Source: Nitrospirota bacterium
Lineage (GTDB): Bacteria; Nitrospirota; Nitrospiria; SBBL01; JAADHI01
Length of the DNA: 64,000 nt
Assembly (NCBI GenBank): GCA_029261155.1
Contig: JAJDBW010000029.1
Location: 1-64,000 of the forward strand
Reading direction: 5' to 3'
The notes under the pieces are model-generated. The model worked only from the letters and a program-made list of their open reading frames with translations. It ran no database searches and had not been told where the DNA came from. Positions 22,802-34,173 of the stretch are shown here, in pieces; positions within the stretch are counted from its first letter, which is position 1; every line of letters begins with the position of its first letter. The translations under genes were made by a program, and so were the position numbers.

Positions 22802-23053
22802 CCCTCATTCAACAACGCCTAGGCTTGCGCTCTAATGGCGATTGGGTTTAAAGAAAAAATCGATTCGCGGTTTGAAAAACGCCAAGGCGCTTTGCGGAGC
22901 TCAAGATACCAAAAAGGGACCCTAGGATGCGACAGGAAAACGCCGGGCCGCCCTTCACAAGACCATGATTTCCGCTATACTGATAACAAGTCTTTTAAAA
23001 CTTGCCGAGCAGTAAGGCCTTCGTATCCTTATCAACTCCCGGGAGAAAATCGT

Positions 23054-24205
23054 ATGGGCACAAATAACTTAATTTTTTTGGAGAATATCGAATGGCTTGA
23101 TACCACAGGTCAAGGGATCGTACACCGGATTCCAGAGGGCGGGTCCGGCGAAATTAAATACGGCGCGCAATTGACGGTGCGAGAAAGCCAGGCCGCCGTG
23201 TTTTTTTATCAGGGCAAGGCCATCGACGCCTTTGCCGCCGGACGCCATACCTTGAAAACGGCCAACATTCCCATCTTAACGAAGATCCTCAGCCTGCCTT
23301 GGGCGATGTCGAGTCCGCTGCGCGCCGAGGTCTACTTCGTCAACATGAAACTCTTCACCAACCTGAAATGGGGCACGAAAAATCCCGTCGCCTTTAAGGA
23401 CTCCAAACTAGGCCTCGTACGTTTGCGGGCCTTCGGGGTGTATAACTTCCGGGTGACGCAGCCGATTCTCTTCATCAACAATCTCGTCGGCACCCAAGGC
23501 GTCTTCAACACGGACGACATCGAAGAATTTTTAAGCCGGGTGCTGGTTTCGCGTTTCAACGACCACCTCGGCGAAAACTTGGACTCGCTCTTGGAGCTAC
23601 CCGGAAAATACGACGAACTCTCCAAGGGCCTCATGGAACGGCTTCAGGACGATTTCAGCCACTACGGCCTGGGACTCACGCAGCTCTACATCTCTTCCAT
23701 CACACCGCCGCAAGAGGTCCAGAAGGCGATCGACGATAAAAGCCGGATGAGCGTCTTCGACGATTTGGACAAGCTTTTAAAAATGAAGGCGGCGATGGCG
23801 GTTGAGAAAGCCTCCGAGCAACAGGGCGAGGCGGGTGCGGGTTTGGGCATGGGTATGGGTATGATGATGCCTGCGATGTTCGCGCAACACCTAGGCGGAC
23901 AAGGCAATGGCGGCGGAAACGGCACCAGCGGCGCGCCCACCGCGCCATCGAAAGATGGACCCAAGTGCCCGGACTGCGCCCACGGCCTTTCACCCGAAGC
24001 CAAATTCTGCCCCATGTGCGGACATCAGATCGTGATCTTCCAACAATGCCAAGACTGCGGGAAAAACCTGCCGCCCAACGCCCAATTCTGCTCGAAATGC
24101 GGGACCAAGGTTGCGGCGGCACCCCACATGAAAACCTGCGGCGGCTGCGGAACCGAAAACCTACACGAGGCGGTTTTCTGCAACCAGTGCGGCGAACGGC
24201 TCTAA
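23054..24205 (+). CDS. SPFH/Band-7-like (YdjI-type) protein fused to a C-terminal triple zinc-ribbon
   Basis: The N-terminal ~280 aa matches the Band_7_1/SPFH (YdjI-like) family. A Gly/Met-rich linker follows. Then come three CxxC…CxxC zinc-ribbon repeats (CPDCAHG…CPMCG; CQDCGK…CSKCG; CGGCG…CNQCG). The start is taken at the ATG with SD GGGAGAA. The track ORF starts 219 nt upstream. Confidence 0.75.
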   Translation: MGTNNLIFLENIEWLDTTGQGIVHRIPEGGSGEIKYGAQLTVRESQAAVFFYQGKAIDAFAAGRHTLKTANIPILTKILSLPWAMSSPLRAEVYFVNMKLFTNLKWGTKNPVAFKDSKLGLVRLRAFGVYNFRVTQPILFINNLVGTQGVFNTDDIEEFLSRVLVSRFNDHLGENLDSLLELPGKYDELSKGLMERLQDDFSHYGLGLTQLYISSITPPQEVQKAIDDKSRMSVFDDLDKLLKMKAAMAVEKASEQQGEAGAGLGMGMGMMMPAMFAQHLGGQGNGGGNGTSGAPTAPSKDGPKCPDCAHGLSPEAKFCPMCGHQIVIFQQCQDCGKNLPPNAQFCSKCGTKVAAAPHMKTCGGCGTENLHEAVFCNQCGERL

Positions 24206-24214
24206 GGCGCACCC

Positions 24215-25441
24215 TTGCAAGTCGAACACCCATGCCCGCAATGCGGCGGCCCCGTCACGCTGGAAGAAAGTGACCGCTTTCTCGAATGTGGTTTTTGTCG
24301 GGTTCGGCTCTATATTTTTTCGAAGGGTTCGCTCAGATATTTCCTGCCCCCAAAATCGAGGCCGGTCGATGAAAGCCTCTTCGTCCCCTATTGGCGATTC
24401 CGGGGCATGGTCTTTTCCATAGGGGCCTCGGACATTCAACACAAGGTCGTCGATGCCAGTTTCCGCGCCCGCGATGTGCACTCCCTGCCGCCTTCCCTGG
24501 GTTTTCGCGCACAAGCCCTGAAAATGAAATTCGCAAGCCCCGAAATCAAGACAGCATTTTTAGCTCCGCAATATGCCCTGAAGAGTGATCTTTCAAAGAT
24601 CGATGCGGTGGCGGATTTTCTCGGCAAGCCTACCGGAGGGGTCTTTCATCGCGCCTATCTCGGCGAAACCCTCAGCCTCATTTACGCACCAGTCTACATA
24701 AAAAACAACACACTCTTCGACGGCGTACTGGACAAAGCCCTGGGCGCGGCCGGACCCGAAATTGAAACCGCCCTCTCAGACCGGGAGGCGGATAGGGGCT
24801 GGGGCCTCCGCTTCGCCTCCGCCCTCTGCCCGAACTGCGGCTGGGATCTCTCCGGGGGACGAGAGAGCCTCGTCTTGTTTTGCGGCCATTGCGAAACGGC
24901 TTGGCAGGCTCAAGGGGCAGACTTTAAAAAAGTGGCGCTCGGGGTTTTGCCCAGCGAGGGCGGTGGCGAAGTTTATTTGCCTTTTTGGCGTGCGTCTGTG
25001 GAAATCAAGGGCTTGCAACTCGAAAGCTATGCCGATCTCGTCAAAGCCGCGAACCTCCCCAAGGCGATCCGGCCCGAATGGCATGAAAAACCGCTTCTAT
25101 TTTGGTCGCCCGCTTTTAAATCGCATCCTAAAATTTATTTGAGATTATGCAGTCAACTGACGACCTTACAGCCCGAAGCGGAGCCCGAAGCAGCGATGCC
25201 CAAGGCCACGATTTGCCCGGTGACCGTGGATGCGCAAGAGGCCTTCGAAAGCATCAAGGTCACGCTTGCGGAAACCTTGACTTCAAAAAAAACCCTGCTC
25301 CCTGCGCTCGACGCCCTGCCTGTGAAAGCCAAAGCGGCGACACTGGCCCTCATCCCCTTTCACTTGCGCGGCAGCGAACTCATCCAAAACGAGTTTAAGT
25401 TGAGCTTTCAGAAGCGCAGCGTGCATGGCCTGGAATTTTAG
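24215..25441 (+). CDS. Zinc-ribbon protein, YdjG-like (two CxxC…CxxC ribbons)
   Basis: Has CPQCGG…CGFC at the N-terminus and CPNCGW…CGHC mid-protein. It lies immediately downstream of the SPFH gene. The start is probably TTG at 24215. Confidence 0.55.
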   Translation: MQVEHPCPQCGGPVTLEESDRFLECGFCRVRLYIFSKGSLRYFLPPKSRPVDESLFVPYWRFRGMVFSIGASDIQHKVVDASFRARDVHSLPPSLGFRAQALKMKFASPEIKTAFLAPQYALKSDLSKIDAVADFLGKPTGGVFHRAYLGETLSLIYAPVYIKNNTLFDGVLDKALGAAGPEIETALSDREADRGWGLRFASALCPNCGWDLSGGRESLVLFCGHCETAWQAQGADFKKVALGVLPSEGGGEVYLPFWRASVEIKGLQLESYADLVKAANLPKAIRPEWHEKPLLFWSPAFKSHPKIYLRLCSQLTTLQPEAEPEAAMPKATICPVTVDAQEAFESIKVTLAETLTSKKTLLPALDALPVKAKAATLALIPFHLRGSELIQNEFKLSFQKRSVHGLEF

Positions 25442-27645: not shown

Positions 27646-27664
27646 CGGAAAAATTAAATACGCT

Positions 27665-27945
27665 TCTCAGGTTAGCCCGCTTGATTGCCGGGCTTAAAAA
27701 GGGAATCCCGTGAAAATCGGGAGCGGTCCCGCCGCTGTATTGGGGGACGAAACCCACATCAATGCCACTGTCCGACACATTCGGACGGGAAGGCGTGGGG
27801 AGTAGGACGAACCCAAAGCCAGAAGACCTGCCTGTGGAAGATCATCACGAACTGTCTTCGAGGGATAAGACAACGGGATCGGCCACGCTGTCCCCATCTT
27901 CTTCCCAAGAAGCTGGGGATTTTTTTTGCTTTTTCAAAAAAAGAG
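27665..27945 (+). ncRNA. Cobalamin (AdoCbl) riboswitch with terminator expression platform
   Basis: The aptamer reads GGTTAGCC…GGCTTAAAAAGGGAATCCCGTGAAAATCGGGAGCGGTCCCGCCGCTGTA…GCCACTG…GGGAAGGC, which matches the B12-element consensus including the B12 box. The 3' hairpin is CCCCATCTTCTT-ccc-AAGAAGCTGGGG followed by T8 (27892..27929). Confidence 0.85.
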
Positions 27946-27951
27946 GGCCTG

Positions 27952-29826
27952 ATGAAAAAACCGTACGCACATTATTTAGACTTTTGTTTTACCCTCCTGT
28001 TCACACTCAGCGTGGTCACGCCCGCAGATGCGGAAACTGCGTCAGATAAAAGCCTTGCCGTCCTTCCACCGGTTGTGGTGACGGCCACGAAAGTCGAAGT
28101 CCCTTTACGAGAAACCGCGGCTTCGACCACCGTGATCGACGGACGGACCTTAGAAGAAAAGCACACCAACACGGTCCTCGATGCCCTACGCGCAGTCCCG
28201 GGACTTCATGTGGTGCAAAACGGCGGTCCGGGTTCGGCCACTTCGGTTTTTATACGCGGCGCGAAATCCGAACACACCCTGGTATTAATCGACGGCGTTC
28301 AAGTCAATAGTCCGACCTTGGGACTCTATAATTTCGCGAACCTAACGACGGATAACATTGAACGCATCGAAATCATACGGGGTCCGCAAAGCACGCTCTA
28401 TGGTTCGGACGCGATTGGCGGGGTGATTCATATCATCACAAAAAAAGGGAGCGGCCCCTTCTCCGGATCGGCATCCTTCGAAGGTGGCGCTTTCGACAGC
28501 TTCAAGGAAGAGGTTCAATTGAATGGCGCGGCGGGACACTTCGATTATTCTTTTTCGGCGGCGCGCTTCGATACCGAAGGTTTCTCGAAGGCCAACGCGG
28601 CGGCCGGCAATACCGAGGAAGACGCCTATGGCAACACCACGGTTTCTTCGCGACTCGGACTCAACTTTACGCAGGACGCCCGCTTGGATTGGAGCCTTCG
28701 TTTCAGCGATGCCAAGGTGAATCTGGACAATTCCTTTCCTGTGATGGACGACCTCAATGCCAGCCAGGAAAACGAAAGCCTGTCAACCGCATTGATCCTG
28801 GTCACGCCGGTCATCGAAAATTGGAGTCAAAAACTTCAAGGCCACTTCCAGCAGGAGGAAAGCGTGGGTAAAGACCCCGACACCGCTTTTAATAATTTTA
28901 AAATCAAAACACGGGTCGAGGAGGTCGACTGGCAGCACACGATCAATTTCGGGGAACACACGAACTTCAGCCTTGGCTACGCCTACGAACAACAAGCAGG
29001 AGAAAATGTCGGTACTTTCGATAAACGACTGCGCACCCAAGCCCATTATGGCTTTTACCAAACTCAACTGGCGGCCTTGATCCTCAACCTCGGCCTCCGC
29101 CACGATGACAATAATCAGTTCGGTGGCAAGACCACCTATAAAACAGAGGCCGCCTTCCTAATCGATGACGAAGGGAGTAAAATCAGAGGGGCCTATGGCA
29201 CCGGATTTCATGGACCGACTTTAAACGACCTCTACTTTCCCGGATTCGGCAATCCCAACCTGAAGCCGGAAGAAAGCGAAAGCCTCGAAGTCGGCTTCGA
29301 TCTCAATCGCATGGACGGGCGATTGAATTTCTCCGCAAGCTATTTCCAAACGCAGATAGAACAATTGATCGTCTTTGTTTTCGATCCGAATACTTTTCTA
29401 GGCATGCCGGAAAACGTAGAGAAGGCTAAAATAAGCGGCTGGGAAATTGGGGCCACTGTGGAAATAACAAAGCGTGTTCAGCTTTCCGGTGAATACACCT
29501 TTACGGACACTCAAAACGAGACGACCGGCGCGGAACTCGCCCGCCGTCCGAAACACAAGGCCAGCGCAACCCTGACGCTCAAACCGATCGACCCTTTGCG
29601 CATTGATTTCGGCCTACTTCATGTCGGGAAACGATTTAACGACACGGCGAACACAAACCTCATGGGCGACTACACCGTGTTTAAGCTGAGCGGCAACATC
29701 GACATCAAAAAAAATATCCAGATTTTTGCCCGAATCGAAAATCTTTTCGACCGTCATTATGAAGAGGTCGCCGGATTCGGCACGGCAGGCCTATCCGCCT
29801 ATGGGGGTTTAAAAATTTCTTTCTAA
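27952..29826 (+). CDS. btuB: TonB-dependent vitamin B12 outer-membrane receptor
   Basis: Has a signal peptide, a TonB box/plug (VVVTATK…DALRAVPGLHVVQNGGPGSATSVFIRGAKSEHTLVLIDGVQVN) and a C-terminal beta-barrel ending …F. It is downstream of the cobalamin riboswitch. Confidence 0.9.
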   Translation: MKKPYAHYLDFCFTLLFTLSVVTPADAETASDKSLAVLPPVVVTATKVEVPLRETAASTTVIDGRTLEEKHTNTVLDALRAVPGLHVVQNGGPGSATSVFIRGAKSEHTLVLIDGVQVNSPTLGLYNFANLTTDNIERIEIIRGPQSTLYGSDAIGGVIHIITKKGSGPFSGSASFEGGAFDSFKEEVQLNGAAGHFDYSFSAARFDTEGFSKANAAAGNTEEDAYGNTTVSSRLGLNFTQDARLDWSLRFSDAKVNLDNSFPVMDDLNASQENESLSTALILVTPVIENWSQKLQGHFQQEESVGKDPDTAFNNFKIKTRVEEVDWQHTINFGEHTNFSLGYAYEQQAGENVGTFDKRLRTQAHYGFYQTQLAALILNLGLRHDDNNQFGGKTTYKTEAAFLIDDEGSKIRGAYGTGFHGPTLNDLYFPGFGNPNLKPEESESLEVGFDLNRMDGRLNFSASYFQTQIEQLIVFVFDPNTFLGMPENVEKAKISGWEIGATVEITKRVQLSGEYTFTDTQNETTGAELARRPKHKASATLTLKPIDPLRIDFGLLHVGKRFNDTANTNLMGDYTVFKLSGNIDIKKNIQIFARIENLFDRHYEEVAGFGTAGLSAYGGLKISF

Positions 29827-29853: not shown

Positions 29854-30801
29854 ATGAAAATCGTCTCCTTTCTCCCCAGTGCCACCGAAATTGTGTATGC
29901 CCTTGGTTTGGAAGACCAACTTGTCGGCGTCACCCACGAGTGCGACTATCCCTCCCATGCGAGGGACAAACCCGTGGCTGTCCGCAGCGCCCTCGACATG
30001 ACCAATCTCGGACAAGAAGAAATCGACCAAAGCGTCCGCGAAGCCCTGCATGCAGGTAAAAGCCTCTACGCCGTCGATGAAGCCTTCATGAAATCGGCCG
30101 AACCCGATTTGATTCTCACGCAGGACCTCTGCCAGGTCTGTGCCCCCTCCGGAAACGAAATTACTACATTGTTAAAATCGCTCCACAAAAAACCGGAGAT
30201 CCTTTGGCTGACACCGACTTGTATCCAAGACATTTTAGAGAACATCAAAACCGTCGGCGATGCGACGGGCAAAACTTCCGAGGCCGAGGCCCTCGTGGAC
30301 AAATTACGAGAAAGAATCACGACGATTAAAAACCGCGTGCAGCACATTCCTTCTCGCCCGCGCGTCTTCTTCATGGAATGGCTTTCGCCCCCTTATTGCG
30401 GAGGTCATTGGGTGGGAGAGATGATTGACCTCGTCGGAGGTTTCGACGGCTTTGCAAAAAAGGGCGGCGACTCCATCCGCATCCCTTGGAAAGCAATTAC
30501 AGCCAACGCACCGGAGATACTCATTCTTTCGCCTTGCGGATTCGATCTCCCGCAAGTCATCGAACAAGCCGAACTGCTCACCCATTTTTCCGGCTGGGAA
30601 AAACTTCCCGCCGTTCAAAAGGCACAAGTCTTCGCAGTCGACGCCAACAGCTACTTCGCCCGGCCGGGCCCGCGCGTGGTGGACGGCATTGAATTGCTGG
30701 CCCACCTTTTTCACGCGGAGGAATTCGAATGGGCGGGCCCGGAGGATGCGTATCGAGTTTTGGATAGGGAGATGCTAGAATCCTTGGCATCGTCAAAGTA
30801 A
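29854..30801 (+). CDS. BtuF-like cobalamin-binding protein (periplasmic-binding-protein fold, no signal peptide)
   Basis: Begins directly with MKIVSFLPSATEIVYALGLEDQLVGVT, a BtuF/FecB-type core. No N-terminal signal sequence is present. Confidence 0.68.
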   Translation: MKIVSFLPSATEIVYALGLEDQLVGVTHECDYPSHARDKPVAVRSALDMTNLGQEEIDQSVREALHAGKSLYAVDEAFMKSAEPDLILTQDLCQVCAPSGNEITTLLKSLHKKPEILWLTPTCIQDILENIKTVGDATGKTSEAEALVDKLRERITTIKNRVQHIPSRPRVFFMEWLSPPYCGGHWVGEMIDLVGGFDGFAKKGGDSIRIPWKAITANAPEILILSPCGFDLPQVIEQAELLTHFSGWEKLPAVQKAQVFAVDANSYFARPGPRVVDGIELLAHLFHAEEFEWAGPEDAYRVLDREMLESLASSK

Positions 30802-30811
30802 ACCGGGGAAA

Positions 30812-30848
30812 GGCAAATCCCCCCTTGCCCCCCTTTTTCAAAGTGGGG
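30812..30848. repeat. REP-like palindromic element, type A (GGCAAATCCCCCC-TTG-CCCCCCTTTTTCAAAGTGGGG)
   Basis: G5/C5 palindrome. Near-identical copy at 34108..34145 and inverted copy at 31325..31363. Confidence 0.7.
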
Positions 30849-30881
30849 TAAAAGATTAGTGGAGTTCTTTTCTTCTTTAGA

Positions 30882-30923
30882 TTTTTCCCCCTTTACAACA
30901 AAGGGGGATGAAGGGGGATTTTT
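30882..30923. repeat. REP-like palindromic element, type B (TTTCCCCCTTTACAACAAAGGGGGATGAAGGGGGATTT)
   Basis: Inverse arrangement of type A. Similar copy at 34044..34077. Confidence 0.7.
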
Positions 30924-30926
30924 ACA

Positions 30927-31310
30927 ATGCTCAACTACAACCCCAAGCTAAAACCTTTGGCGCGGCGGCTGCGCGCTGAGATGACGGAGAGCGAAAAGAA
31001 ACTTTGGTTCTATTTGCGGAATAGGCAGATGGGCATTCCTTTTTACCGACAGAAATCCATTGGGAATGTCATTGTAGATTTTTACGGACCGAAAGCCAAG
31101 CTGGTGATCGAGGTGGATGGCTCGCAACACTTCGAGGACGATCACCGAGAAAGCGATCTCAGTCGCGACAGATATCTGACCGAAAAAGGCCTGCACGTTT
31201 TGCGATTCGATAACTTCCAAATCTTGCAACAAACTCAGGCCGTTCTGGAAATCATCGCGAGAGAAATCCCCCTCCATCCCCCTTTGCCAAAGGGGGACAA
31301 AACCAAATGA
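30927..31310 (+). CDS. DUF559 endonuclease-domain protein (Vsr/restriction-endonuclease-like fold)
   Basis: Carries LARRLRAEMTESEKKLWFYLRNRQMGIPFYRQKSIGNVIVDFYGPKAKLVIEVDGSQH…LHVLRFDNFQI, which matches DUF559. The 3' end of the CDS is itself built from a REP-like copy. Confidence 0.8.
   Translation: MLNYNPKLKPLARRLRAEMTESEKKLWFYLRNRQMGIPFYRQKSIGNVIVDFYGPKAKLVIEVDGSQHFEDDHRESDLSRDRYLTEKGLHVLRFDNFQILQQTQAVLEIIAREIPLHPPLPKGDKTK
31264..31296. repeat. REP-like palindromic element inside the 3' end of the DUF559 CDS
   Basis: AAATCCCCCTCCATCCCCCTTTGCCAAAGGGGG encodes …IPLHPPLPKGD…. Confidence 0.6.
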
Positions 31311-31324
31311 AAAGCACCACAATG

Positions 31325-31363
31325 TTTTACCCCACTTTGGAAAAGAGGGGCAAGGGGGGATTT
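31325..31363. repeat. REP-like palindromic element (reverse complement of type A)
   Basis: TTTTACCCCACTTTGGAAAAGAGGGGCAAGGGGGGATTT is the reverse complement of the 30812..30848 copy. Together the two bracket the DUF559 gene. Confidence 0.7.
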
Positions 31364-31383
31364 AATGTCGCAAGAGGTGACAC

Positions 31384-33417
31384 ATGATAGGCCCTGAAAT
31401 CGCCGCCGGAGCCGCTATGCTTAAAACATTTCAATGGGTATGGGATAACTTCGGCAAAGAGATTAGCCAATCCGCAAGCGGAGCCATTCAAAAAAAATGG
31501 AAGTCGTTTCAGTACAAATCCGCCGCCACTGCATATGCGCAACAAATGAAAAAGCGCTACGGCCAGATGCAGCTATGGAAGATGTCTGCACCCACCTCGG
31601 TCGATCAAATTTTCACGCAGGTCAATATCCTCGAAAAACAATCTGCTTTTCGTCACTTGCCCAAGGCACAGATCGAAAAGATGATCTTAAACGAAGCTTC
31701 TTTTGGAGAGACGGTCGAAAAAAGGAAGGACGGCATGGCCGTCGTGCGGGAAAATAATCGTCTGTTCATTCTCGGCAAACCGGGTGCGGGCAAAACCACC
31801 TTTCTTAAACACATCACCTTGCAGGCGATCAAGGGCAAGATCGACGCCATTCCCATCTTTGTGACCCTGCAGGAACTTTCTGAATCCCAACTCACCTTAA
31901 TGGATTTTATCACCCAGCAATTCGATATCTGCGGATTTCCGGAAGCCCTGCCCTTTATTGAAACCCTTTTAAAAGAGGGCAAGGCCATTGTGCTTTTTGA
32001 TGGACTCGACGAGGTCAACACGGCCCAGGGCCTGCGCGACAAACAGATTCAAGCCATGAAAGACTTTAGCCACAAATATGATCGGAGCAAAGTGGTCATC
32101 ACCTGCCGGGTCGCGGCCACCGAATACAATTTTGAAGGCTTTACCTATGTCGAAATGGCGGATTTTGACGACGAACAAATCAAAACCTTTGTCCGCCTTT
32201 GGTTTGCAAAAAATAAAAAGACCTCTGAATTGTTTTTCGAGGCCTTTAAAAAACAAGAAGGCAATCGGTTGCGTGATCTAGCGAAGAACCCCTTTCTCTT
32301 AACGCTCTTGTGCATTGGTTTTGAAGAAACCTTGCGCTTCCCCAATCGCCGTTCCGAGATTTATGGAGAGGCCCTCAATGCCCTGCTGCAAAAACGAGAC
32401 AGCTCCCGGGGAATTAAGAGAGACGAGATCTATCACAAGCTTTCCCTGGGTCGGAAAAACCAGATGTTCGCCCGCATCGCCGCAGAGACTTTTGAAAAAG
32501 GGAAATACCTTATTGAAAAGAAACCCTTGGAAAAGAAAATCGTCGCATACTTGAAAAATCTACCTCCCGGCGACCCAGGAGAAGAGATTGACGGCGAAGC
32601 CGTGCTCAAAGCCATTGAGGCCCAGCACGGCATCTTTGTCGAACGGGCAAAAGGCATCTACTCCTTTGCTCATCTCTCTTTTCAGGAATACTACGCGGCC
32701 CAATATACGGTTTCACACCCCAAACAAATCCAAAAACTCATTGCTTATTGTGGAGATCCCCGTTGGCGCGAGGTCTTTCTTTTAACGGCGGAATTGTTGG
32801 ATGATGCGGATAGCTTTTTTGATCATTTTATTCGCCAATTGAATGAACATGCATCGAAAGAAGAAAGGCTTAATGCACTGTTAGTAAAAGGGAGGGGTCG
32901 CACTTTTGAACTAAGAATACTTGCACTATGGAATAACATAATTTCTACCAGGGCCCTCGATAGCTCTCTCACCACCATATCAAACGACGCCATCGTGCTC
33001 ATCGCTAAAGTCCTCCCCTACGATCTCTCGAAAAGCGCTAGCTCACGCAACCTCGACAAGGCCCTCGCCCGCACGAGAGCCGACGTCCTCGACCGCGAGC
33101 TCACCAGAGGCCGCGATTGGTTTAAGGAAGCGCTGTCATTTAGTCAAAAAGAAGATAAAGCATGCCACTGTTTACTTGCCAAGCTTTCATTTCCCCGGAA
33201 GAATGCCACAAAGAAAACCCGGCAAGACTTTGCGGATGCGGTTTACAAAATTTTCAAAGCAAGGTGTCGCATTGAAGACTATGAATTTACAACGGAAGAG
33301 TTCCAACACGTGAATAAATATCTCGAAGCCACCATACTACTACACGACTGCCTCAAGGTTGCGTATGTCTCGGATCGTGCAGGTATTGAAGACCAGTTGT
33401 TGCAGCCAGCGAGGTAG
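31384..33417 (+). CDS. NACHT-domain STAND NTPase (bacterial NLR-like)
   Basis: Walker A is GKPGAGKTT. Walker B is IVLFDGLDEV. The NACHT GxP/sensor region is NPFLLTLLC. About 110 N-terminal residues and ~300 C-terminal helical residues are unassigned. Confidence 0.8.
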   Translation: MIGPEIAAGAAMLKTFQWVWDNFGKEISQSASGAIQKKWKSFQYKSAATAYAQQMKKRYGQMQLWKMSAPTSVDQIFTQVNILEKQSAFRHLPKAQIEKMILNEASFGETVEKRKDGMAVVRENNRLFILGKPGAGKTTFLKHITLQAIKGKIDAIPIFVTLQELSESQLTLMDFITQQFDICGFPEALPFIETLLKEGKAIVLFDGLDEVNTAQGLRDKQIQAMKDFSHKYDRSKVVITCRVAATEYNFEGFTYVEMADFDDEQIKTFVRLWFAKNKKTSELFFEAFKKQEGNRLRDLAKNPFLLTLLCIGFEETLRFPNRRSEIYGEALNALLQKRDSSRGIKRDEIYHKLSLGRKNQMFARIAAETFEKGKYLIEKKPLEKKIVAYLKNLPPGDPGEEIDGEAVLKAIEAQHGIFVERAKGIYSFAHLSFQEYYAAQYTVSHPKQIQKLIAYCGDPRWREVFLLTAELLDDADSFFDHFIRQLNEHASKEERLNALLVKGRGRTFELRILALWNNIISTRALDSSLTTISNDAIVLIAKVLPYDLSKSASSRNLDKALARTRADVLDRELTRGRDWFKEALSFSQKEDKACHCLLAKLSFPRKNATKKTRQDFADAVYKIFKARCRIEDYEFTTEEFQHVNKYLEATILLHDCLKVAYVSDRAGIEDQLLQPAR

Positions 33418-33446
33418 GACTCAACTATATATAAAGGACAAAACCC

Positions 33447-34031
33447 ATGCGCATCACAAAAGTTTACACACGCACCGGAGACAAAGGCACGACCCGCTTG
33501 GCGGGCGGACAGGAAATCACAAAAGATCATCTCCGCATCGAGAGCTACGGAACGGTCGATGAGTTGAATGCCATCGTCGGCCTGGCGCGGGTCTTCACGC
33601 AGGAACTTCCGGAGACGATGCCGGAGCGCGACCGACTCGATGAAGCCCTGCAAGGGATGCAGGACCGGCTCTTCGACATCGGCGGTATTCTGGCCTCACC
33701 GCCGGGTAAAGAATCTCAAGAAATGAAGGCCATCTTAAACCGGGAGATCGACGGCCTCGAGGCCTTGATGGACGATTGCCAAAAATCGCTTGAACCCTTG
33801 AAGGAATTCATCCTGCCCGGCGGTGGAAAAATCGCGGCCTTTCTGCACCAGGCAAGGACGGTGTGCCGACGCGCGGAGCGGCTCTGCGTAACGCTCAATC
33901 GAGAAGAGGCTGTGCCGGAAGAAGTGCTGCGTTATTTGAATCGCCTGAGCGACGCCTTCTTTGTGCTCTCCCGCTGGATCGCCAAAGTCCAAGGCGAAAG
34001 CGAAACCCTCTGGCGGCGGCATAAAACATGA
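33447..34031 (+). CDS. PduO-type ATP:cob(I)alamin adenosyltransferase
   Basis: Carries MRITKVYTRTGDKGTTRL…GTVDELN. This is the PduO/MMAB N-terminal family. Confidence 0.87.
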   Translation: MRITKVYTRTGDKGTTRLAGGQEITKDHLRIESYGTVDELNAIVGLARVFTQELPETMPERDRLDEALQGMQDRLFDIGGILASPPGKESQEMKAILNREIDGLEALMDDCQKSLEPLKEFILPGGGKIAAFLHQARTVCRRAERLCVTLNREEAVPEEVLRYLNRLSDAFFVLSRWIAKVQGESETLWRRHKT

Positions 34032-34043
34032 CATTGTTTTAAC

Positions 34044-34077
34044 TTCCCCCTTTGACAAAGGGGGAGTGAGGGGGATT
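34044..34077. repeat. REP-like palindromic element (type B-like)
   Basis: TTCCCCCTTTGACAAAGGGGGAGTGAGGGGGATTT. Confidence 0.7.
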
Positions 34078-34107
34078 TATCTTTTTGGTTCTAAGCGTCA
34101 ACATTAA

Positions 34108-34145
34108 AGGCAAATCCCCCCTAGCCCCCCTTTGCTAAAGGGGGG
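34108..34145. repeat. REP-like palindromic element (type A-like)
   Basis: GGCAAATCCCCCCTAGCCCCCCTTTGCTAAAGGGGGG. Confidence 0.7.
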
Positions 34146-34173
34146 AATGACAAGAGAAGTTAAATTCAAAAAG

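Follow-up and report, generated by a model that had tools for sequence, protein, structure and literature searches.

The cobalamin-salvage operon and its interrupted junction

We analysed a 64-kb stretch of DNA (the window) from a Nitrospirota bacterium of the class Nitrospiria, in which a riboswitch-led cobalamin-salvage operon contains a DUF559 gene and a gene for a STAND NTPase with NACHT and NCH2 domains, lying one after the other between a gene for a signal-less BtuF-like protein and pduO. An earlier, sequence-only reading of this DNA had suggested that the two genes may be an undescribed defence module, and the open reading frames (ORFs), the Walker A and B motifs and the NPFLLTLLC stretch of the NTPase, the riboswitch-led B12 operon and the repeats near the DUF559 gene were all present as that reading described them. 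The operon is laid out as follows (window coordinates; nt, nucleotides; aa, amino acids).

27652-27849, + strand: cobalamin riboswitch, which heads the operon (Rfam RF00174, 121.5 bits, E = 5.6e-30)
27949-29826, + strand: BtuB-like TonB-dependent receptor (Pfam Plug and TonB_dep_Rec_b-barrel), its start set at MKKPYAHY inside the ORF 27685-29826
29854-30801, + strand: signal-less BtuF-like Peripla_BP_2 protein, left border of the slot (Pfam PF01497, E = 2e-22)
30927-31310, + strand: DUF559 gene, 127 aa (Pfam PF04480, 108 bits, E = 2.3e-31)
31384-33417, + strand: NACHT-NCH2 STAND NTPase, 677 aa (Pfam NACHT PF05729, 57.6 bits for a cut-off of 26.7, E = 1.8e-15)
33447-34031, + strand: PduO-type corrinoid adenosyltransferase, right border of the slot (Pfam PF01923, 202 bits; TIGR00636)

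Downstream of pduO, the + strand continues with genes for CobQ, then BtuF, then FecCD.

A variable slot between the BtuF-like gene and pduO

We examined what lies between the BtuF-like gene and pduO in relatives of this organism (loci coded L003, L005 and so on; the BtuF-like protein of the window is 87% identical to that of L003, 76% to that of L007 and 64% to that of L005), and found that the content of this junction differs from one relative to another.

Window and L003: repeats, DUF559 gene and NACHT gene
L005, L006 and L009: Phd/YoeB, NACHT gene and HicAB
L168: Phd/YoeB and NACHT gene, with the contig ending past the NACHT gene
L169: Phd/YoeB and NACHT gene
L167: CobS, NACHT and PduO in this order, with the NACHT stop overlapping the pduO start; no DUF559 gene
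L008: DUF559 gene and a gene for a 606-aa protein (L008 11384-11508, cut by the contig end)
L011: repeat doublet (copies A and D, described below) and the gene for the same 606-aa protein (L011 7625-9445)
L007: empty, with a gap of 322 nt
L010: empty, with a gap of 34 nt

That two genes unrelated to B12 interrupt the operon is thus borne out, as the BtuF-like gene lies directly beside pduO in L007 and L010 and the insert has a lower guanine-plus-cytosine (GC) content in every lineage; in the window, the insert has 47-50% GC and the flanking genes 54-63%. Searches of the two empty sites for remnants of NACHT, TOPRIM or DUF559 genes (tblastn with word size 2, and blastn-short) returned noise only. 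The NACHT gene is not core to the cobalamin operon: L007 and L010 lack it, and L008 and L011 have another gene in its place. The sequence-only reading had expected the insertion to be missing from related operons. This holds for L007 and L010 but not for the lineages in which the NACHT gene is conserved in place, so that the outcome counts in part against that reading.

An OLD-like TOPRIM domain (Pfam PF20469, 26.7 bits for a cut-off of 23.2; PADLOC GajA, 1.3e-6) is present in the 606-aa protein that takes the place of the NACHT protein in L008 and L011, and links it to the OLD/GajA-type TOPRIM nucleases of Gabija and the OLD family. The 606-aa protein differs from these nucleases in having no detectable ABC-ATPase domain, and it is not found in the window, only as the alternative occupant of the slot. 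Its gene has a GC content about 10 points under that of its flanks.

Collectively, these results show that the cobalamin-salvage operon has a variable slot, that the 2.6 kb filling it in the window, from the BtuF-like gene to pduO, is accessory, and that this DNA consists of two independent things, the NACHT gene and a DUF559-repeat unit. The alternation of an NLR-like gene with an OLD-like TOPRIM gene in a slot that is empty in some relatives is unusual. With its present, absent and replaced states, the slot offers a clean natural series for studying the persistence of accessory, defence-like genes and the way in which operon junctions turn into insertion hotspots, and its history is worth following up.

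In the L005 lineage, we also observed three toxin-antitoxin pairs (Phd/YoeB, HicAB and VapBC) at successive junctions of the B12 operon (L005 7460-7982, 10164-10732 and 11399-11991). The operon junctions of this lineage collect small selfish modules.

Age and inheritance of the NACHT gene

At least five other lineages of the Nitrospiria type have an orthologue of the NACHT gene, 56-67% identical, directly before pduO. The two genes lie 29 nt apart in the window and 14 nt apart in L003. The identity matrices of the NACHT core and of PduO group the lineages in the same way. Between the window and L003, the synonymous divergence (dS) is 0.58 for the NACHT gene, 0.80 for the DUF559 gene and 0.42-0.75 for the B12 genes. 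The gene is under purifying selection, with a ratio of nonsynonymous to synonymous divergence (dN/dS) against L003 of 0.35 overall and 0.15-0.19 for residues 61-480, and in four lineages its GC content is about 4-10 points below that of its flanks.

The same slot in relatives, the congruent grouping of NACHT and PduO and a dS like that of the flanking genes together indicate that the insertion is old and was passed on vertically, and that it is no recent cassette. These findings do not support the small mobile cassette suggested by the sequence-only reading. The PduO proteins of the NACHT-bearing lineages are only 72-79% identical, and an NLR-like gene kept in one slot of a riboswitch-led housekeeping operon across lineages this divergent is unusual. 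Under the simplest history, an ancestor of these lineages would have gained the NACHT gene once, the gene would have descended vertically thereafter, and it would later have been lost (L007) or replaced (the L011 lineage). Since the empty sites hold no remnants, the loss part of this history is an argument from parsimony only.

The NACHT protein is a NACHT-NCH2 STAND NTPase

The 677-aa protein is divided as follows.

31384-31563, + strand: N-terminal helical segment, residues 1-60, with three helices and nearly invariant W18, W20 and W39; matches no Pfam family
31774-31800, + strand: Walker A, GKPGAGKTT, residues 131-139, invariant in 81 homologues
31990-32016, + strand: Walker B, LFDGLDEV, residues 203-211, with the signature DGLDE (D206-G-L-D-E210)
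32824-33153, + strand: hypervariable, partly disordered spacer, residues 481-590, which cannot be aligned among orthologues
33211-33408, + strand: NCH2 (NACHT C-terminal helical domain 2), residues 610-675 (Pfam PF22727)

The Walker B signature D[GAS]hDE, of which DGLDE is a form, sets NACHT apart from the other STAND clades (Kibby et al., 10.1101/2022.07.19.500537). The NPFLLTLLC stretch corresponds to residues 302-310, as read from the translation. We built an AlphaFold2 model on 81 homologues (predicted local distance difference test, pLDDT, 83; predicted template modelling score, pTM, 0.80) and found by Foldseek that its best matches in the PDB are the animal NLRs NLRC4, NLRP3 and NOD2, across the nucleotide-binding, first helical, winged-helix and second helical domains (NBD-HD1-WHD-HD2), with a probability of 1.0 and E values from 2.6e-12 to 1e-8. 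The WHD motif FAHLSFQEY aligns with the WHD of NLRP3 and contains the conserved WHD histidine; as FxHLSFQE, this motif is shared between the window protein and the animal NLRs. The superposition on active NLRC4 (8fvu_B) gives a root-mean-square deviation of 4.4 Å over 484 alignment columns. A sequence search of the PDB with the family profile returned only weak P-loop and WHD matches, so that the fold search was needed to place the protein. Taken together, Pfam, the model and Foldseek confirm that this is a true NLR-like NACHT STAND NTPase, which passed all the NACHT-clade and NACHT-NCH2 structural tests. It differs from the animal NLRs in sequence (13-18% identity), in having no leucine-rich repeats, CARD or PYD, and in its short, helical C-terminus.

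The AlphaFold model fits the active or open form of NLRC4 (8fvu_B, 8fw2_A; root-mean-square deviation about 4.4 Å) far more closely than the autoinhibited form (4kxf; 11-17 Å).

The two ends of the protein, which the sequence-only reading had both left unrecognised, fared differently. The C-terminal end is recognisable as NCH2: for a cut-off of 27, residues 480-677 on their own score 27.9 bits and the whole protein 25.8 bits, and homologues reach 36-51 bits. The N-terminal end does match no family, and the stretch concerned measures about 50-60 residues, not 110. It is conserved and rich in tryptophan and lysine, and a search of residues 1-115 against Pfam at E<=1 found no effector or adaptor family, only a chance-level match to DUF4269. 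In a few members of the family, an EAD8 adaptor or a trypsin-like protease domain replaces the first 30-50 residues of the window protein, which indicates that the short N-terminal segment sits at the effector/adaptor position. Between the NACHT module and NCH2, the spacer is only 24% identical to that of the L003 orthologue, compared with 83-92% for residues 61-480, and the model has a pLDDT below 50 at residues 526-563.

More than 5,800 database proteins match this family at E<=0.001. Most are 640-770 aa long with the NCH2 layout of the window protein, and they come from Acidobacteriota, Desulfobacterota, Chloroflexota, Cyanobacteria and other groups. Thousands of these NACHT-NCH2 proteins already carry the name NACHT domain-containing protein, so the architecture can hardly be called undescribed, as had been suggested. 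The NACHT gene of the window adds one member to a very large, already named family and is ordinary in itself.

Among the systems studied before, the layout closest to that of the window protein is that of the effector-less clade 14 of the bNACHT proteins (bNACHT01, 02, 11 and 12; Kibby et al., 10.1101/2022.07.19.500537). These are likewise encoded by a single gene, have a central NACHT module with Walker A and D[GAS]hDE, show no discernible enzymatic effector and have a short post-NACHT region that diversifies much faster than the module. In place of the SNaCT domain of clade 14, however, the window protein has its variable spacer and NCH2. The bNACHT proteins are bacterial NLR-related antiphage proteins, whereas the window protein is known from sequence alone, and its gene lies not in a defence island but in a housekeeping operon, where it is inherited vertically.

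Two arrangements were seen beside homologues of the NACHT gene. A gene for a 439-aa P-loop protein with weak AAA/nSTAND matches lies directly upstream of an 827-aa NACHT homologue (P0009) on two independent contigs (L170 6604-7923, L171 225-1544), and the two genes may be a two-gene variant of the family. At another locus, the PhoH-like gene directly upstream of a distant homologue carries a LAGLIDADG intein-type insertion (L087 602-2638).

The DUF559 gene and its hairpin repeats

In the window, the DUF559 gene is surrounded by four copies of a hairpin element of about 40 nt, nested as A[B-DUF559-C]D, and a further doublet lies downstream.

30815-30857, + strand: copy A, outer left arm, 93% complementary to copy D over 43 nt
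30879-30921, - strand: copy B, inner left arm, 96% complementary to copy C over 23 nt, ending 5 nt 5' of the DUF559 ATG
31264-31306, + strand: copy C, inner right arm, within the last codons of DUF559
31321-31363, - strand: copy D, outer right arm, ending 20 nt 5' of the NACHT ATG
34036-34154, both strands: doublet of copies E (- strand) and F (+ strand) between pduO and cobQ, laid out like the B/C pair, with no gene inside and a counterpart in L003

The element has the form AAATCCCCC-N4-5-CCCCCTTT-N-AAAGGGGG, a C5/G5 hairpin with AAATCCCCC as its head. Chance would give 0.76 occurrences of the head motif in the window; there are 7, of which 6 are true copies, all within the B12 operon, where they form three doublets. 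No repeat was found in the 29 nt from the NACHT stop to the pduO start, which means that the repeats enclose DUF559 only and that the NACHT and DUF559 genes are not bracketed as a unit. The claim that inverted, REP-like elements bracket the DUF559 gene and that one of them (copy C) builds its 3' end is therefore correct, and fails only in so far as the elements were taken for the ends of a two-gene cassette; they delimit the DUF559 unit or are doublets independent of it.

The DUF559 protein is predicted to be a Vsr-like PD-(D/E)XK nuclease. It matches PDB 3hrl (E = 2.7e-17), is 48% identical, over the tblastn match span, to the gonococcal gene that corresponds to this structure, and has a dN/dS of 0.12 against L003; the motif VDF...IEVDGSQH is conserved in the 23 homologue sequences inspected. 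It falls in the Vsr clade, of which a group I intron homing endonuclease is another member (PMC3424549).

We found that close homologues of this gene occur in unrelated surroundings. In L172-L174, the homologue is placed within a restriction-like operon, with the methylase gene on one side and the helicase gene on the other; in L175 it follows an acyl-CoA dehydrogenase gene, and in L176 a P450 gene beside toxin-antitoxin pairs. In all five loci the homologues are flanked, in inverted orientation, by the same type of element as in the window, about 33-35 nt long. Together with that of the window, the units at the following positions come from several phyla.

L172 3860-4391; L175 3959-4476; L176 3920-4408; L177 1301-2027; L178 1396-1878

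The left repeat ends 4-8 nt 5' of the DUF559 ATG, except in L176, which has an insert of about 45 nt between the two; the right copy lies in or just past the last DUF559 codons. The arrangement on the B side is the same in the window, L003, L172, L175 and L176. When six DUF559 contexts were aligned, similarity stopped at the repeats. In addition, 60 of 120 DUF559 homologues have tails starting with KSP, NPP or IPP, which are three reading frames of AAATCCCCC, indicating that conservation is at the level of the DNA. Doublets with no gene inside were found in L003, L011 and L176 as well as at 34036-34154 of the window. Copy D also precedes the TOPRIM gene in L008 and L011, and the A/D doublet of L011 is without DUF559. 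Less closely related DUF559 genes, on one plasmid of Pseudanabaena and one of Deinococcus, likewise stand between nested inverted repeats, which are C5/G5 hairpins too but of their own, different kind; the Pseudanabaena repeat occurs in 12 copies in 50 kb, mostly as doublets, against 0.03 expected.

From these observations, the DUF559 gene is a unit of its own of about 0.45 kb, functionally unrelated to the NACHT gene. With its inverted hairpin repeats of about 35 nt, it would be a selfish unit, seated in the window inside an older repeat doublet.

This organisation recalls the repetitive extragenic palindromes (REPs) and their Y1 transposase, the REP/REPIN-RAYT system. In both, short hairpin repeats often form inverted doublets and occur in multiple copies, one protein gene lies between inverted copies, gene-less doublets exist, and different clades of the gene go with different cognate repeats. 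The DUF559 unit differs in carrying a Vsr-like PD-(D/E)XK nuclease and not a Y1/HUH transposase, its repeats have no GTAG/CGTC tag and are low in copy number, and it is known from sequence alone. Having neither the Y1 transposase nor the GTAG tag, it is not to be filed under RAYT/REPIN, although it may be an analogous system.

We also considered whether the repeats are ordinary RAYT-type REPs and rejected this, as a RAYT-like gene in L005 has its own, distinct GTAG repeats. This is a 215-aa gene with a faint Y1_Tnp match (L005 3856-4503 and 4117-4617), located between cobU and cobT and flanked by GTAG-type palindromic repeats.

We hypothesize, as a tentative idea about which we have more doubt than confidence, that DUF559 nucleases are the cognate enzymes of widespread C5/G5 hairpin repeats, in a RAYT/REPIN-like arrangement built on another nuclease fold, and that the gene unit and its gene-less doublets have spread into intergenic sites of operons across phyla. 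Within the library of papers searched, none linked DUF559 to palindromic repeats. If the association is general and unpublished, it would explain what DUF559, a very common domain of unknown function, is for and would add a second kind of repeat-associated nuclease beside the RAYTs. It is in our view a more interesting lead than the NACHT gene, and one worth following up.

The DUF559 and NACHT genes as a possible two-gene module

The sequence-only reading had viewed the two genes as a pair, in which an NLR-like defence module with DUF559 as its nuclease effector acting in trans would form a small cassette bounded by palindromic repeats. The genes adjoin on the same strand in both the window and L003, and at one further locus, L099, a DUF559 gene lies upstream of a distant NACHT homologue. 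The clade-6 proteins bNACHT25 and bNACHT32 (PD-(D/E)XK DNase-NACHT-NCH1; PMC12169576) have a fused PD-(D/E)XK DNase effector, which makes a nuclease partner conceivable. Both proteins share with the window a NACHT module followed by a C-terminal helical domain and a nuclease of the PD-(D/E)XK fold close by. Their nuclease is fused and required, however, whereas DUF559 in the window is a separate gene that does not co-occur with NACHT, and their C-terminal domain is NCH1, not NCH2.

The distribution of the two genes speaks clearly against such a pair. The window, L003 and L099 are the only loci in which both were found. The NACHT gene occurs without DUF559 in L005, L168 and L169, which have Phd/YoeB instead, and in L167; DUF559 occurs without the NACHT gene in L172-L176, L177 and L178, and in L008, where it stands beside another gene. 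Among 80 loci of distant NACHT homologues, DUF559 is near one. Furthermore, the repeats hold DUF559 alone, the similarity between contexts ends with them, and none follows the NACHT gene. The two-gene module is thus largely refuted by synteny, and we consider it very improbable that DUF559 is the nuclease partner of the NACHT protein.

A proposed standalone NLR-like sensor in an operon hotspot

We propose, with a probability of roughly 0.55, that the NACHT gene encodes a standalone NLR-like conflict or defence sensor that has long occupied an operon hotspot. Its gene is probably co-transcribed with the other operon genes, by read-through; the intergenic gaps around it are 20-29 nt, repeats aside. 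In a promoter/terminator scan, promoter-like sites along the operon were no more frequent than expected by chance, a result that speaks neither for nor against an internal promoter, and the terminator-like matches in the operon were mostly the repeat copies themselves. Encoded by a single gene, the protein would be a switch that oligomerises in an NTP-dependent manner, and in this it would resemble the antiphage bNACHT proteins. Under this hypothesis, the variable spacer and NCH2 would detect a cue that comes from a phage or from stress, the NACHT module would then oligomerise with the help of NTP, and the N-terminal helices, thus clustered, would give the output, for which membrane engagement or partner recruitment is our guess.

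Several points weigh against a defence function. The curated antiphage models are far missed (NCBIfam EruA, 39.8 bits for a cut-off of 1000; DS8, 23.6 for a cut-off of 790), and the PADLOC model PDC-S60 matches at only 5e-8, in the P-loop region, in a 2023 copy of PADLOC that may hold no bNACHT models. No recognisable effector domain came up when the protein was scanned with Pfam. Only about one STAND clade in three is associated with defence, and such clades are scattered among non-defence ones (Lee et al. 2026). For the NACHT-NCH2 family as a whole, defence is at most a putative role. Defence genes normally turn over fast, and long vertical retention inside a housekeeping operon is atypical for them. 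The empty sites have no detectable NACHT remnant, and loss and a site that was never inserted cannot be separated by sequence. Finally, the commonest neighbours of distant homologues are not defence genes but two-component signalling proteins (10 of 122).

These neighbours are otherwise heterogeneous; we looked for a conserved partner gene of the distant homologues and rejected the idea on this ground. A minority carries conflict domains, namely EAD10, TIR, CHAT and TRADD-N-associated transmembrane domains, amounting to a few of the 122 neighbours (a raw count). A search of viral contigs for the family returned P-loop-level matches only.

Some of the same evidence could mean that the NACHT protein is a non-defence STAND protein, that is, a signalling or housekeeping switch or a domesticated remnant, whose accessory look results from relaxed constraint. 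Such a role would fit with the many STAND clades that are not defence-associated, with the response regulators and histidine kinases that are most often found beside distant homologues, with the long vertical retention, with the missing effector domain and with the near absence of the family from viral contigs. It fits less well with the hypervariable post-NACHT region, which is a feature of the antiphage bNACHT01 clade, with the family's fusions to EAD8 or a trypsin-like protease, which are typical modules of conflict systems, and with the neighbours that have EAD10, TIR or CHAT domains. The patchy presence of the gene, its alternation with an OLD-like TOPRIM gene in the slot and its low GC content in every lineage also disagree with it. 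We therefore regard a non-defence role as possible but rather doubtful.

We also examined whether the role of the NACHT gene is tied to the operon in which it lies. It could encode an immune or stress sensor that is co-expressed, under the riboswitch, with the exposed outer-membrane receptor BtuB, or a STAND switch that senses corrinoid status. The position directly upstream of pduO, with short gaps or an overlap, is kept in six lineages, the NACHT core evolves about as slowly as PduO, and the downstream B12 genes presumably need transcription through the NACHT gene. Among the cyanobacterial NACHT proteins there are some with GUN4, a domain that senses tetrapyrroles (Kibby et al., supplementary discussion), and the alternative occupant of the slot, the TOPRIM gene, is also defence-like. 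However, the absence of the NACHT gene from L007 and L010 and its replacement in L008 and L011 mean that the operon works without it, and Pfam scans of the protein detected no ligand-binding or DNA-binding domain. B12 genes were found near none of the more distant homologues (<=53% identity) in 80 metagenome loci, which indicates that the link with B12 is lineage-specific and positional and not a property of the family. The gathering of toxin-antitoxin pairs, DUF559 and a RAYT-like gene at operon junctions likewise argues for a permissive insertion site and not for a function. A role tied to the operon is for these reasons unlikely.

Other observations on the operon and its surroundings

The signal-less BtuF-like protein at the left border of the slot appears to belong to a widespread cytoplasmic corrinoid-binding family: relatives that are 40-58% identical (L012-L086) occur in Dehalococcoidia, Thermoplasmata, Nitrososphaerota, Pyrinomonadaceae, Actinomycetes and Pedobacter, and those of Pedobacter often adjoin a TonB-dependent receptor. 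In L007, the match to CobQ is split (L007 11836-12515), with query residues 12-64 and 327-520 found and the middle missing, and cobQ may be internally deleted or rearranged there. Upstream of the operon, two adjoining + strand ORFs of 456 and 408 aa (window 22835-25441) are rich in CxxC zinc-ribbon motifs, as judged from their translations, and the first of them ends in several C-terminal CPxCG repeats.

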